NCBI RefSeq assembly: GCF_054482595.1 | Contig: NZ_CM137008.1 | Strand: one strand, 5' to 3' | Length of the DNA: 64,000 bases | Part shown: piece after piece, positions 30,021 to 39,270 of the stretch | How the letters are laid out: the number at the start of each line of letters is the position of its first letter | Position numbering within the stretch: the stretch's first letter is position 1 | Position numbers and translations under genes: made by a program | The notes under the pieces: generated by a model | Database searches by the model: none | What the model was told of the DNA's origin: nothing | What the model saw: only the letters and a program-made list of their open reading frames with translations

Positions 30021-31077
30021 GGCTTTGTTGAATAAATCAGATTTCGGGTAAGTCTCCCCCGTAGCGGGTTGTGTTTTCAGGCAATACGCACGCTTTCAGG
30101 CATACCTGCTTTCGTCATTTTGTTCAGCGCTCGTACCAGGGCCATAGCCTCCGCAACCTGACCATCGTAGTCACGCAGCGTCAGTGAACCCCCGAACAGC
30201 TGTTTTACCCGGTACATCGCCGTTTCCGCTATCGAGCGACGGTTGTAATCTGTTGTCCATTTCCACCGCGCATTACTCCCGGTCATTCGCTGATTAGCCA
30301 CTGCACGGTTACGGTCTGCATATTCACCGGGCCAGTAACCCGCACCTTTTCGGGGAGGGATAAGCGCGCTGATTTTCTTACGCCGCAGTTCATCGTGACA
30401 TAGCCGGGTATCGTAAGCGCCATCGGCGGCGGCTGACCTGATTTTCCGGTGGGTTTGCCGGATTAACCCGGGGAAGGCCTCTGAGTCCGTAACGTTGTTC
30501 AGCGACAGGTCAGCGCAGATGATTTCATGTGTTTTACTGTCAACGGCGAGATGCAGCTTACGCCAGATACGGCGGCGTTCCTGGCCATGCTTTTTGACTT
30601 TCCACTCGCCTTCACCGAAGACCTTCAGCCCGGTGGAATCAATTACCAGGTGTGCGATTTCACCCCGGGTGGGCGTTTTGAAACTGACATTAACCGACTT
30701 TGCCCGCCTGCTGACACAGCTGTAATCCGGGCAGCGTAGCGGAACGTTCATCAGAGAAAAAATGGAATCAATAAAGCCCTGCGCAGCCCGCAGGGTCAGC
30801 CTGAATACGCGTTTAATGACCAGCACAGTAGTGATGGCAAGGTCAGAATAGCGCTGAGGTCTGCCTCGTGAAGAAGGTGTTGCTGACTCATACCAGGCCT
30901 GAATAGCTTCATCATCCAGCCAGAAAGTTATGGAGCCACGGTTGATGAGGGCTTTATTGTAGGTGGGCCAGTTGGTGATTTTGAACTTTTGCTTTGCCAC
31001 GGAACGGTCTGCGTTGTCGGGAAGATACGTGATCTGATCCTTCAACTCAGCAAAAGTTCGATTTATTCAACAAAGCC
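30021..31077 (-). mobile_element. IS903 (IS5 family, 1057 bp)
   Basis: Inverted repeats ggctttgttgaataaatc at 30021 and its complement ending 31077; transposase ORF 30077..31045 (MKDQITYLPDNADRSVAKQKFKITNW...). Flanking 9-mers differ, so no target-site duplication. Confidence 0.88.
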
Positions 31078-32207
31078 GTTACCCGCTCTTCAATCTCATG
31101 CAATTGATTATGCAATATCGCATTTTCATCCTTTTGCCCGGCTAATGAGTGGGTAAGCGTCTCAACTTCTTGCTGTAATGCGGAGCTCCTGGCCTGGAAA
31201 AACTCAAGTTCCTTCAGAACCCGATCTTTAAGAGAGAATAGGTACTCTTCAGCTGACAGCGTGGTGATCCTATGATGGGCGGCGGCGATAAATTCATCAT
31301 AAAAATCATCACTCTTTGCATCCAGGGCAACAACAAACTCTTTCACTTGCTGATAAAACGGGTGAAATGCCGGACCAGAAATCGTGTTTAAATGCCACTC
31401 AAGGAACACGACAACATAGTTTTTATAATCTCTGAGACGGTGTTCCATCATCCCCTGCTGACAGATAAACGCTTTAAGCGCCACCAATGCTTCAACAGCA
31501 CAGCGGTGCGACTCTGCTCGCGTGGCGGATAGGGATTCACTACGGTTGATGGTATGAGAAATTAACGTTTCATTTAAGACCGAAATTCTGTTCGCCATGA
31601 GCATAAATGCGCAGACGAAGAAAAGATCGTTGGTCGTCCTGATTTCCTGAAAGCGAAGCTGATGACTAGTAATAAATTGACGCCTGAGAAGCTTGTCCCA
31701 TGGCCACCAGACAAAGGTGCGGAAAAAGTCAGAGGGAATATCCTGGGATGAAAAAAACTTGAGATCAGGTAACAGCTCCTGGCGCACTGACCACGGCATC
31801 GGAGCATAAACCTGCAAGGCGGGATCAAAAGACTGGCTGCGACAGATAACGACATCCGCTTGTATATCGCTAGCACGTGCGTACATGCGCTCCAACATCA
31901 TGTTATCGACATAATCGTCGTCATCAAGAAAAATAACGTACTCACCGGTAGCAGCATCCAACCCGATGTTTCTTGAGCCTCCCCCACCAAGATTTGTCGT
32001 GTTGTTAATGACTCTAATTCGTGAATCAGTTTCAGCCAGCGCCGAGACAATCTCTAAGGTATTATCGTCAGAACAATCGTTGACAATAATGATTTCAATA
32101 TCATTTAATGTTTGCGACAAAACAGTGCTCAATGTGTCGGAAATATATCCCGCCGCATTGTGCACAGGGATAATAACGGAAACAGCTATACTCTCTTTTT
32201 CAGACAT
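31047..32207 (-). CDS. GT2-family glycosyltransferase with C-terminal coiled-coil; 3' end fused to or truncated by IS903
   Basis: 386 aa; SVIIPVHNAAGYISDTLSTVLSQTLNDIEIIIVNDCSDDNT and DxD (FLDDDDY); final codons ALLNKSNFC* are encoded by the IS903 inverted repeat (31047-31077). Confidence 0.6.
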   Translation of the reverse strand: MSEKESIAVSVIIPVHNAAGYISDTLSTVLSQTLNDIEIIIVNDCSDDNTLEIVSALAETDSRIRVINNTTNLGGGGSRNIGLDAATGEYVIFLDDDDYVDNMMLERMYARASDIQADVVICRSQSFDPALQVYAPMPWSVRQELLPDLKFFSSQDIPSDFFRTFVWWPWDKLLRRQFITSHQLRFQEIRTTNDLFFVCAFMLMANRISVLNETLISHTINRSESLSATRAESHRCAVEALVALKAFICQQGMMEHRLRDYKNYVVVFLEWHLNTISGPAFHPFYQQVKEFVVALDAKSDDFYDEFIAAAHHRITTLSAEEYLFSLKDRVLKELEFFQARSSALQQEVETLTHSLAGQKDENAILHNQLHEIEERVTALLNKSNFC

Positions 32208-32328
32208 GCAATCACCTTGACGCTTAGCTTATAAACGTAATTATATTTATTTATGGGTAGCGTTTAATTTGTAGGTTGCCAGTTTATTAAGGATGGGTAA
32301 GATGAAAGCGACTGAGCTTCATCAAAAA

Positions 32329-33462
32329 TTACTCTTCAACAACATCACGATATGTTTTTAATGTTTTATTAATGATCATCACACTCGAGAATTTATCTTG
32401 AATGCGTTTTCTGCCATTGATACCCATTGCGACGCGCGTTTCTGGGTTATCCAACAGGAAACCGAGTTTCTCCGCTAATTCCTCGACAGATTTACTTTTT
32501 ACAATCAACCCATTATAGTTATTGATAATTAAGCTATCACAGCCACCAACATCATAAGCGATACAAGCGCGCCCGACAGAGGAAGCTTCCAGCAAGATAC
32601 GCGGTACGCCTTCGGCGTAGACCGACGGCAAAGCAACGATATTTGATTCTTCAATTAAATCAAATACATTAGAGCAATGACCGAGCCAGTTAATCACGCC
32701 TTCGCTTTGCCACTTCTGTATCGTCGCCAGCGGAATTGCGTCTTTATCATTCTCAACTAAAATACCGGCAACATTCAGCGTAAAGTGAATATTTTTATTA
32801 CTCAGTATTTTTTTGGCTTCAATCAGGTCACCCAGTCCTTTACTCCACAGCATACGGCTGGCAAAAAGGACGACCGGAACATCACGCTGCTGCTCCAGAG
32901 AGTATTTGTAAATCTCTGGATTAATACCCGCGCCATCAATAACAATAGTCTGTTTGTAATCGATACCAACCAGATCGGCAAGTTTAGCTCTGTCTTTATC
33001 ATGTTCGAACATAAACAAACTGCATTTGTTACTGGCGATATACTTATATGCCATAACAGTAAAACTTCGCAGCAGCTTAAGACAGGCAGACTCTGCGGAA
33101 AATACTCGGCCCAAACCGACAAAACTCAGAATAACAGGACGATGGGTACTTTTAGCCAGAAAACCGCCGATCAAACAGGGCTTGATGGTAATGCAGTGCA
33201 ACAAATCTGGATTGATGTTTTGAATAATTTTCCGAGCCTTAGAAAAGGCCCGAAAGAAAATCAAAACGTTGAATGATTGGGCGACAAGTGGAATGTTATG
33301 GCAAACAAAACCTAATGTCCTGAATTTTTCCGCTATTTTATCATCGACAAAATGGCTAATAATGTGAATCTCATAACCGGCATCTCGGGCGGCAATTGCA
33401 CGATCGGTCCAATGCAAATCAAAATACCAATCCGAATTTATGAAATAACACAGTTTTTTCAT
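32329..33462 (-). CDS. wbbO: GT4-family glycosyltransferase, WbbO-like (377 aa)
   Basis: Internal start MKKLCYFINSDWYFDLHW...; GT-B C-terminal signature (EGVPRILLEASSVGRACIAYDVGG); length and position after wbbN match the Klebsiella rfb layout (recalled). Confidence 0.6.
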   Translation of the reverse strand: MKKLCYFINSDWYFDLHWTDRAIAARDAGYEIHIISHFVDDKIAEKFRTLGFVCHNIPLVAQSFNVLIFFRAFSKARKIIQNINPDLLHCITIKPCLIGGFLAKSTHRPVILSFVGLGRVFSAESACLKLLRSFTVMAYKYIASNKCSLFMFEHDKDRAKLADLVGIDYKQTIVIDGAGINPEIYKYSLEQQRDVPVVLFASRMLWSKGLGDLIEAKKILSNKNIHFTLNVAGILVENDKDAIPLATIQKWQSEGVINWLGHCSNVFDLIEESNIVALPSVYAEGVPRILLEASSVGRACIAYDVGGCDSLIINNYNGLIVKSKSVEELAEKLGFLLDNPETRVAMGINGRKRIQDKFSSVMIINKTLKTYRDVVEE

Positions 33463-38182: not shown

Positions 38183-38961
38183 TACAAAATCTCTGCAAAT
38201 CGATATTTTAATTTATTAAAAATACTCAGGCCCACAATTGTCAGGACTAAACCTGTAATGTAAAGGATTGAAATATATTCATAATTTAAGACGCCATCCA
38301 TGAACAGCTGCCGCCAGCTGAGGATCATGCTTGCCAGAGGATTATAGGTAATAATCCAGCTAAATTTTTCAGGAATCATATCTGACGCATATAATATCGG
38401 CGTGCAATAAAACATGAGCATGATACCAAGGCTGACAAATCGCTCTAAATCCCTGAAGAACAGATTTAGCGTAGAAAATATGATTGAAATACCAAATGTA
38501 AAAATCACCTGACCAAGCGCAATAATTGGTACGCCCCAGAGCCATGAGAGCGATGGACGCATACCATACACGAACAGGAATGCAATAATCACAGGAATTG
38601 TACACAAGAAATGTACCCCTTCCATCATGACATTACTCAATGGAATAACTGAGCGCGGAAAAACTGTTTTTTTGATTATTTGCGCATTGGCTATAAACGA
38701 AAACAAGGAATTTGTCGCCGAGCTGGCAAACCATTGCCACGGAAATAAACCGGTAATCAAGAAAAGGGTATAATTCGGGATCTGCACTCGCATAACGAGC
38801 TTAAAAATGAAATAATATATCATTGCAAAAAGCAGTGGATTCGCAATTGACCATAAGTAACCAAATACGCTGCTTTTATAACGTACCTTTAAATCTTTGT
38901 TTGTTATAACAACAAGAAGATCAAACAAATACCCTATATTATACTTCATTTTTATACTCAT
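38182..38961 (-). CDS. wzm: O-polysaccharide ABC exporter permease (ABC-2 type, 259 aa)
   Basis: Six predicted hydrophobic segments; first gene of the operon downstream of the ops element. Confidence 0.8.
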   Translation of the reverse strand: MSIKMKYNIGYLFDLLVVITNKDLKVRYKSSVFGYLWSIANPLLFAMIYYFIFKLVMRVQIPNYTLFLITGLFPWQWFASSATNSLFSFIANAQIIKKTVFPRSVIPLSNVMMEGVHFLCTIPVIIAFLFVYGMRPSLSWLWGVPIIALGQVIFTFGISIIFSTLNLFFRDLERFVSLGIMLMFYCTPILYASDMIPEKFSWIITYNPLASMILSWRQLFMDGVLNYEYISILYITGLVLTIVGLSIFNKLKYRFAEIL

Positions 38962-39258
38962 AAATTATTCTACAAAAAATTCCGTACGTAATATGTATCA
39001 AACAGAATTATCGATAAGATCTGCTGTGCTCGAGAGACGAACAGCTATTCCCATAAACAAAGACCAATTGTAACATCATTTTGCACAAGCAATATGTAAA
39101 CAATCTTTCCTGCGCATTAGCACTCCGGAATCGGAGATGATCGCTAACCTCAGTAACCGCTGAATGAAAATGTGATTCTCGTGGAAGATACATAAACCAT
39201 CCTTTAAGATTGTAAATAAAATGTTAAATCGAACAATGAGTTTATTCTAAAATTCAGA

Positions 39259-39270
39259 CACGCTACCGCC
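39259..39270 (-). promoter_or_regulatory. ops element (GGCGGTAGCGTG), RfaH recruitment site, in the leader of the wzm operon
   Basis: Plus-strand cacgctaccgcc is the reverse complement of the canonical 12-nt ops; ~300 bp upstream of the wzm start in the transcribed orientation. Confidence 0.75.

Follow-up and report, generated by a model that had tools for sequence, protein, structure and literature searches.

The 64,000-nucleotide stretch of DNA analysed here (the window) matches Escherichia coli THO-010 end to end (NZ_AP022540.1, 2882116-2946117) and carries, on a genomic island at the tRNA gene serX, what is very probably a horizontally acquired O1 antigen module of Klebsiella/Raoultella type. 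This judgement covers the identity of the genes, their origin and the pathway they encode; actual display of the polysaccharide on the surface of THO-010 seems probable from the combined evidence and is held with somewhat less confidence. The module joins an ABC-transporter-dependent galactan cluster (wzm-wzt-wbbM-glf-wbbN-wbbO and a truncated kfoC-like gene) to the gene pair wbbY-wbbZ. A first-pass annotation of the window had called such a cluster in E. coli unusual, which was overstated: it is present in about 1% of complete genomes and was published by Kelly et al. 2023 (PNAS 120:e2301302120, PMC10629545). The core observation is correct but already known for THO-010 itself, so that the present analysis adds provenance and anatomy rather than discovery, i.e. 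the Raoultella provenance, the exact boundaries at insertion sequences (IS), the truncation of kfoC, the conserved ops/JUMPStart element, the limits of the island at serX and serW, and updated frequencies.

Gene content and the predicted O1 pathway

Seven consecutive open reading frames (ORFs) occupy the minus strand at 31047-38961, the first six of them in the order wzm-wzt-wbbM-glf-wbbN-wbbO, which is syntenic with 10 enterobacterial loci. Lengths are given in amino acids (aa) and GT stands for glycosyltransferase:

38182..38961, minus strand: wzm, ABC-2 permease, 259 aa (permease family hits; 99.6% identical to Raoultella)
37442..38182, minus strand: wzt, ABC-transporter ATPase, 246 aa (100% identical to the Raoultella orthologue; RefSeq name RfbB)
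35535..37427, minus strand: wbbM, dual-module (DUF4422 + GT8) D-galactan I polymerase, 630 aa (Pfam; 99.4% identical to R. ornithinolytica)
34362..35516, minus strand: glf, UDP-galactopyranose mutase, 384 aa (NCBIfam TIGR00031, 321 bits vs an equivalog cut-off of 304)
33475..34365, minus strand: wbbN, GT2 galactofuranosyltransferase, 296 aa (99.3% identical to R. ornithinolytica; weak GlfT1/GT2 hits)
32329..33474, minus strand: wbbO, GT4 galactopyranosyltransferase, 381 aa (GT4 family hits; 99.5% identical to R. ornithinolytica)
31047..32207, minus strand: kfoC-like GT2 gene, truncated, 386 aa (Pfam GT2 at residues 10-140)

From wzm to wbbO, the products are equal in length to their Raoultella orthologues and 99.3-100% identical to them, without frameshifts or stops. 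Both modules of WbbM are recognised by Pfam (DUF4422 at residues 5-243, GT8 at residues 279-545), and the protein aligns with K. pneumoniae WbbM (PDB 6u4b) at 78.8% identity across 575 residues without a gap. In WbbM, the DUF4422 module is the galactofuranose (Galf) transferase and the GT8 module the galactopyranose (Galp) transferase. Likewise, Glf is 84.9% identical to K. pneumoniae Glf (PDB 2bi7), and WbbO is 81% identical to the K. michiganensis orthologue in the same position. Family models were unhelpful for the transporter, as the NCBIfam “galactan export” models for Wzm and Wzt scored far below their cut-offs (56 vs 380 and 184 vs 400 bits), and its identity therefore rests on synteny and on near-identity to the Raoultella/Klebsiella loci. 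Wzt has no C-terminal carbohydrate-binding module; matches to ABC ATPase families cover residues 4-243.

What the first-pass annotation had described for these genes is all present at the coordinates it gave, namely seven co-oriented genes with the functions listed above and galactan-type rfb enzymes in Klebsiella order, on which domain hits, the homologies of WbbM and Glf, and synteny agree. The translational-coupling overlaps were also seen, with TAATG shared by wzm and wzt and ATGA shared by glf and wbbN; the TAA of wbbN abuts the GTG start of wbbO. A check for disabling mutations found the six D-galactan I genes intact and only the seventh gene truncated. The visible AT-richness holds in comparison with typical E. 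coli backbone and is only moderate relative to the immediate surroundings: G+C content is 41.7% for 31078-39889 (36.7-45.5% per gene) vs 46.7% in the csg..ghrA flank and 47.2% in the whole island, and it reaches 49.8% beyond the island (51273-64000).

About 6 kb from the galactan cluster, on the same island and outside the coordinates given by the first-pass annotation, lie wbbY and wbbZ (22062-25191):

22062..24284, minus strand: wbbY, D-galactan II polymerase with GT4 and GT2 modules (Pfam), 740 aa
24382..25191, plus strand: wbbZ, terminal pyruvyltransferase (O1b cap), 269 aa, divergent from wbbY

THO-010 WbbY is 99.6% identical to that of K. pneumoniae NCTC11682 (Kelly et al. 2023, Table S2, PMC10629545), and WbbZ shares 268/269 residues with K. 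pneumoniae WbbZ (PDB 6x1l). The Klebsiella WbbY extends D-galactan I by polymerising D-galactan II on it, and WbbZ adds a pyruvate cap, which gives the O1a and O1b antigens (PMC10629545). As wbbYZ reside in the same island as the rfb genes, the complete Klebsiella O1 antigen appears to be encoded, i.e. galactan I, galactan II and the pyruvate cap, and the antigen predicted from the gene content is O1, not O2a.

Following the characterised Klebsiella pathway, biosynthesis would start with host WecA priming undecaprenyl phosphate with GlcNAc-1-P to yield GlcNAc-PP-undecaprenol. WbbO would then add alpha-Galp and WbbN beta-Galf, with UDP-Galf supplied by Glf, resulting in a Galf-Galp-GlcNAc adaptor; addition of Galp to GlcNAc-PP-Und by WbbO and completion of the adaptor by WbbN are described functions of these enzymes (Kelly et al. 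2024, Nat Commun 15:6504). From UDP-Galp and UDP-Galf, WbbM would polymerise [->3)-beta-D-Galf-(1->3)-alpha-D-Galp-(1->], which is D-galactan I (O2a). WbbY would extend it with D-galactan II, [->3)-alpha-D-Galp-(1->3)-beta-D-Galp-(1->] (O1a), and WbbZ would cap a fraction of the chains with pyruvate (O1b). The lipid-linked glycan would be exported by a Wzm/Wzt transporter devoid of a carbohydrate-binding module and ligated to lipid A-core by host WaaL, and the predicted product is a ->3)-beta-D-Galf-(1->3)-alpha-D-Galp-(1-> polymer on lipid A-core. THO-010 would thereby display a Klebsiella O1-like O polysaccharide alongside, or competing with, its own O130 antigen. Introduction of Klebsiella rfb2a and wbbYZ into E. 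coli DH5alpha resulted in O1a/O1b lipopolysaccharide (LPS) (PMC10629545), hence E. coli K-12 supports the whole pathway.

Raoultella-like origin, island anatomy and spread

The galactan cluster is part of a longer imported segment that is delimited by an insertion sequence on one side and the remnant of another on the other side:

31078..39889, minus strand: imported segment, 8812 bp (blastn: 99.3% to the rfb locus of R. ornithinolytica NBRC 105727, 95.2% to R. planticola)
30021..31077, minus strand: complete IS903, 1057 bp, with 18-nt terminal repeats GGCTTTGTTGAATAAATC (inverted repeats, sequence, RefSeq IS903B); left boundary
39898..40323, minus strand: IS3-family transposase remnant (RefSeq pseudogene); right boundary, with Raoultella homology stopping at 39889

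In comparison to K. michiganensis and K. grimontii, the DNA of the segment is only 73-76% identical. A scan with the WbbM-like protein (one genome per species, exact peptide patterns derived from the query, K. pneumoniae not retrieved by this design) yielded 32 loci, the top two being those of R. ornithinolytica (99%) and R. planticola (98%); a donor strain closer than the sampled Raoultella may exist. The Raoultella cluster is located between manC/ugd/epimerase and hisIE, the canonical O-locus site, with flanks of 55-59% G+C. Since two Raoultella species carry it at the same site with species-level divergence, the sequences are most simply explained by a transfer from Raoultella, or a close relative, to E. 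coli. WbbM and Glf share 79% and 85% of their residues with their K. pneumoniae counterparts vs 99-100% with those of Raoultella, which points to a Raoultella-like source and argues against K. pneumoniae as the direct rfb donor. The earlier assignment to a Klebsiella-type galactan locus thus stands for the type of the locus and fails for its nearest source, which is Raoultella, not K. pneumoniae.

The seventh gene is cut by IS903 at about residue 377 of 434 (tblastn aligns residues 1-377 only), and the last ~10 codons and the stop of the truncated ORF are supplied by IS903. Its full-length, 434-aa version is found in Raoultella (locus L003, 15221..16525). The truncated protein keeps the GT2 domain (10-140) and has lost part of a C-terminal coiled-coil-like tail. 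By position, the gene is the counterpart of kfoC in the Klebsiella O1/O2 locus, which is without known function, the mandatory genes being wzm-wbbO (PMC7556023); on this basis the seventh gene is dispensable for D-galactan I. An acyltransferase-family gene that follows the kfoC-like gene in Raoultella (L003, 16793-17881) and in plasmid copies is not present in the window, and it hints at O-acetylation of the original Raoultella polymer. We propose that the O1 module was assembled and moved by insertion sequences and is carried on the serX island. The imported piece consists of the native leader with ops/JUMPStart, the genes wzm to wbbO and most of the kfoC-like gene, bounded by IS903 and the IS3-family remnant.

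The island itself is 41.6 kb in size, reaches from serX to ycdU and bears an integrase:

9373..9460, plus strand: serX, tRNA-Ser(GGA) (ARAGORN; RefSeq context ghrA-tRNA-Ser); left attachment end of the island
51067..51080, plus strand: 14-nt direct repeat of the serX 3' end, CCCCCTCACCGCCA (blastn-short, E = 0.033 within the window); right attachment end, followed by ycdU
49698..50906, minus strand: tyrosine integrase (ORF and RefSeq annotation); far end of the island
21191..21958, minus strand: IS1 with approximate ends (RefSeq; terminal repeat 21936-21958; ORFs), cutting hsdM, ~100 bp downstream of wbbY

It has a tRNA gene at one end, a repeat of the 3' end of this gene at the other and a tyrosine integrase inside. 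The genes csgBAC/DEFG, ycdXYZ and ghrA lie near serX, with the curli genes on the serX side opposite the island. A location in a tRNA-serX island next to curli genes had been proposed from the start and is corroborated by tRNA, repeat, integrase and csg neighbours. The same applies to the bracketing by insertion sequences, with IS903 on one side and IS3-family, ISL3 and IS66 remnants at 39.9-43 kb on the other.

A gene for the M subunit of a type I restriction-modification system (19641-21958) runs into IS1 and is not followed by genes for the S or R subunit; the system appears to be a remnant. Past the island, the window (51273-64000) contains ycdU and a cluster of acyl-carrier protein, ketosynthase, FabZ-like, ABC-transporter and LolA-like genes that is also found in O157:H7 genomes at 97.5% identity. 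Elsewhere in the THO-010 chromosome, the poly-N-acetylglucosamine (PGA) deacetylase gene pgaB (record 2970846-2974841) is split by IS1 and ISKpn26, and export of this biofilm polysaccharide is probably defective.

Across 5426 complete E. coli genomes, wbbM was detected in 53 (chromosomal in 47 cases and plasmid-borne in 6, with identities of 99.8% or more throughout). Full-length wbbYZ are also located on 33 of the wbbM-bearing replicons, and one genome has wbbYZ only. The cluster of strain SMS-3-5 is 100% identical to that of the window, and the same island with identical protein accessions is found there at serW (NC_010498.1, 2261374-2302908; infA-tRNA-Ser-island-int-clpA). As serW is the other tRNA-Ser(GGA) gene and identical to serX, both evidently serve as alternative attachment sites for the island. 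In strain BY63 (NZ_CP090570.1, 1421762-1436878), a compact IS1-wbbY-wbbZ-IS903B-kfoC'-wbbO...wzm-IS1 unit with the same 386-aa truncated seventh gene is situated beside dsdC and resembles a composite transposon. The distance from wzm to the IS1 upstream of it is only ~280 bp in this copy, thus ops is probably missing. Plasmid copies (pF3_13_1_3-1 and the IncFII plasmid of ET220) have kept the full seventh gene and the acyltransferase gene and have a shorter 5' leader. They reach further 3' and less far 5' than the window, which suggests that chromosomal and plasmid forms derive from a longer Raoultella fragment. Disrupted carriers occur as well: ISVsa5 interrupts wbbY in YD786, and the cluster is partial in three genomes.

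Leader, expression and rival explanations

The leader upstream of wzm contains one candidate regulatory element:

39259..39295, minus strand: JUMPStart element (Rfam RF01707) with ops GGCGGTAG at 39263-39270

The motif GGCGGTAG is present once in the window, on the coding (minus) strand and 309 nt upstream of the wzm ATG, in agreement with the exact ops at ~300 bp described in the first-pass annotation. An ops-type 8-mer occurs by chance with a mean of 1.19 per 64-kb window and a single occurrence alone is not significant; for this reason, conservation was tested across homologous loci of Raoultella, Klebsiella, Serratia, Enterobacter and Erwinia. GGCGGTAGCGT after a short JUMPStart-like stem was found upstream of wzm in 9/10 of these loci, the sequence around ops being otherwise divergent. 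The Rfam JUMPstart model gave a full-length match at 39259-39295 (E = 0.004; 25.6 bits, below the gathering score of 35). On this sequence evidence we regard the ops/JUMPStart element as real and infer that the operon depends on RfaH. Host RfaH, recruited at ops, would let transcription proceed to the end of the 8-kb operon. A promoter-inversion phase switch as in the Salmonella T1 locus was ruled out, since the annotation shows no recombinase gene adjoining the operon and only short inverted repeats were found. Two of these (13 and 11 nt, equal spacing) are located at 39641-39672 and 40140-40191, each with one arm in the leader that came from Raoultella and the second in the remnant of the IS3-family element, and they may be fragments of the same insertion sequence in opposite orientation.

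The native O-antigen region of THO-010 is of the Wzx/Wzy type (galF-wzx(O130)-wzy(O130)-gnd-ugd-wzzB-his) and ~1 Mb away from the galactan cluster. A search of the genome for a galF-gnd cluster found a distinct O130 cluster and upheld the placement of the galactan genes outside this locus. Given this separate locus, the galactan cluster represents an additional O-polysaccharide locus, not the regular one in a wrong place. The position adjacent to his is held by the O130 genes, and linkage to his characterises the native locus and is no part of the pathway. Within the O130 cluster, an IS1 (record 1911520-1912217) separates two glycosyltransferase genes, with a GT2 gene and galE downstream of it. 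Synthesis of O130 might be lowered by a polar effect of this insertion.

Serological data are available for other carriers. The E. coli O19ab strain F8188-41 is wbbYZ-positive, and its LPS reacts with anti-galactan II serum (Hsieh et al. 2014, PMC4237132); natural expression in E. coli has been demonstrated only in this strain (PMC4237132). SMS-3-5 was serotyped as O19:H34 (PMC4237132), its WbbYZ have been linked to E. coli O19 (Hsieh et al. 2014, PMC4237132), and O19 sera and Klebsiella O1 cross-react (PMC10629545, PMC4237132). The galF-gnd locus of SMS-3-5 is O153-type, with a split flippase gene (wzx) and IS1 beside gnd (record 1049057-1051446). An O19 serum type despite an O153-type galF-gnd locus is a mismatch that, read from the serotype rather than measured, fits expression of the galactan in SMS-3-5. 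The O153-type arrangement itself recurs unchanged (100% identity) in 77 genomes, and the 53 carriers of wbbM account for only a minority of these. Split wzx and IS1 are thus a trait of the O153-type cluster and not linked to the island, which speaks against the idea that carriers have specifically inactivated their native O locus.

Other explanations of the cluster have to be weighed against an expressed O1 module. A mis-assembled ordinary O locus, or an artefactual island context, is of negligible probability: nothing was found in its favour, and it is ruled out by the complete O130 region ~1 Mb away and by the recurrence of the same cluster and context in dozens of independently finished genomes. 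Less remote, albeit still improbable, is a variant polymer, i.e. a Raoultella-type galactan that differs in linkage, side groups or termination and is not O2a/O1. The identities of WbbM (79%), WbbN (~70-72%) and WbbO (~81%) to available Klebsiella-genus proteins would allow for this, as would the extra kfoC-like GT2 and acyltransferase genes of the Raoultella locus and the plasmid copies. However, the gene order is identical, WbbM aligns without gaps, and in the window the acyltransferase is absent and kfoC truncated. Moreover, wbbYZ, whose product needs an O2a acceptor (PMC10629545), are linked to the cluster on 33 replicons, and the clusters were treated as rfb2a by Kelly et al. 2023 (PMC10629545).

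The most probable of the alternatives, which we nevertheless consider rather unlikely, is a silent passenger: the genes would be correctly named but have no adequate promoter or be outcompeted by O130, and no galactan would reach the surface. Several observations weigh in this direction and against an expressed, K. pneumoniae-like O1 antigen in THO-010. A scan for sigma-70 promoters and terminators found no more sites than in shuffled sequence and did not locate a promoter, and of the 1365-bp intergenic region upstream of the Raoultella operon only 928 bp were retained. The seventh gene is incomplete, and insertion sequences have heavily degraded the surroundings, where IS elements and pseudogenes crowd the flanks. 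The copies found in E. coli are all near-identical, which implies a recent acquisition and spread that left the ORFs no time to decay and makes their intactness weak evidence of selection. The interrupted wbbY of YD786, the three partial clusters and the “disrupted” clusters listed by Kelly et al. 2023 (Table S2, PMC10629545) agree with a passenger role. Further, the native Wzx/Wzy system draws on undecaprenyl phosphate and WaaL as well, and this competition could keep surface display low, the galactan of THO-010 is a prediction from its genes, and the Raoultella-type repeat unit is assumed to be identical to that of K. pneumoniae at only 79% identity of WbbM. On the other hand, the native leader with its conserved ops/JUMPStart element was kept, all six required genes are intact, SMS-3-5 with an identical cluster is serologically O19 (cross-reacting with Klebsiella O1) despite its O153-type galF-gnd locus, and Klebsiella genes work in E. 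coli K-12 (PMC10629545). We thus favour expression of the O1 module in THO-010. A wider proposal, which we make tentatively and with slightly less than even confidence, is that in ~1% of E. coli an expressed, IS-mobilised O1 module (Raoultella-derived rfb plus Klebsiella-type wbbYZ, hopping between serX, serW, other chromosomal sites and IncF plasmids) sets the immunodominant O antigen whatever galF-gnd encodes.

Significance and relation to known systems

The O1/O2 galactans of Klebsiella are leading vaccine and antibody targets, and E. coli displaying the same antigen would cross-react. Sequence-based O serotyping that relies on galF-gnd only could be escaped or confounded by the second locus, and phage receptor specificity and serum resistance could change. 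If the O1 module is indeed expressed, in silico O typing would mislabel carriers such as SMS-3-5 (O153 in silico vs “O19” by serum), and carrier E. coli would serve both as targets and as reservoirs for anti-Klebsiella O1 antibodies, vaccines and O1-specific phages. In evolutionary terms, this is a clear case of an entire O-antigen pathway that moved out of its canonical position in one genus; insertion sequences combined it with an unlinked modifying locus of other source, and it then spread via islands and plasmids in a second genus.

The E. coli isolates of Kelly et al. 2023 and Hsieh et al. 2014 carry the same thing as the window. An “O2a cluster: Yes” is listed for THO-010 (O130), SMS-3-5, C21, EC21, CFSAN061769, MRSN346647 and YD786 (Kelly et al. 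2023, Table S2, PMC10629545); a serotype-specific rfb operon close to his and gnd is found in the majority of such isolates as well, and simultaneous expression of two O antigens is considered possible for many of them (PMC10629545). The Raoultella origin, the truncation by IS903, the ops element and the island boundaries at serX and serW are not part of these two publications. A literature search found no description of the cluster in a serX island beyond them and, within the library searched, no later paper adding expression data for the Table S2 strains.

The T1 locus of Salmonella (Kelly et al. 2024, Nat Commun 15:6504) is likewise a second, lipid A-core-linked ABC-transporter polysaccharide away from rfb, built on the same Galf-Galp-GlcNAc adaptor by WbbO and WbbN and in need of Glf. 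It differs in its polymerases, which produce Galf and Ribf homopolymers, in its conserved chromosomal locus, and in its control by a FimB-like recombinase through promoter inversion; neither such a recombinase nor such a switch is present in the window.

Closest in gene content is the K. pneumoniae O1 system (rfb(O2a) wzm-wzt-wbbM-glf-wbbN-wbbO-kfoC plus unlinked wbbY-wbbZ), which has the same genes, gene order and two-locus logic, and shares the ABC transporter without a carbohydrate-binding module and the DUF4422 + GT8 architecture of WbbM. In contrast, the rfb part of the window is Raoultella-like and located in a tRNA-Ser island, not next to his, the two loci lie within 9 kb of each other, IS903 has cut kfoC, and the host has an O130 cluster too. 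The rfb loci of R. ornithinolytica NBRC 105727 and R. planticola ATCC 33531 are the nearest in sequence (99.3% and 95.2% DNA identity over 8.8 kb, ops leader included); they differ by their canonical ugd-epimerase-rfb-hisIE site, a full 434-aa seventh gene and a further downstream ORF, and have no wbbYZ within 10-kb flanks. Finally, the O8, O9 and O9a antigens of E. coli (equivalent to Klebsiella O5 and O3) are likewise Klebsiella-type ABC-transporter-dependent O polysaccharides. They differ from the module described here in being polymannans encoded by the sole O locus at the his-linked site and exported with a Wzt that has a carbohydrate-binding module.

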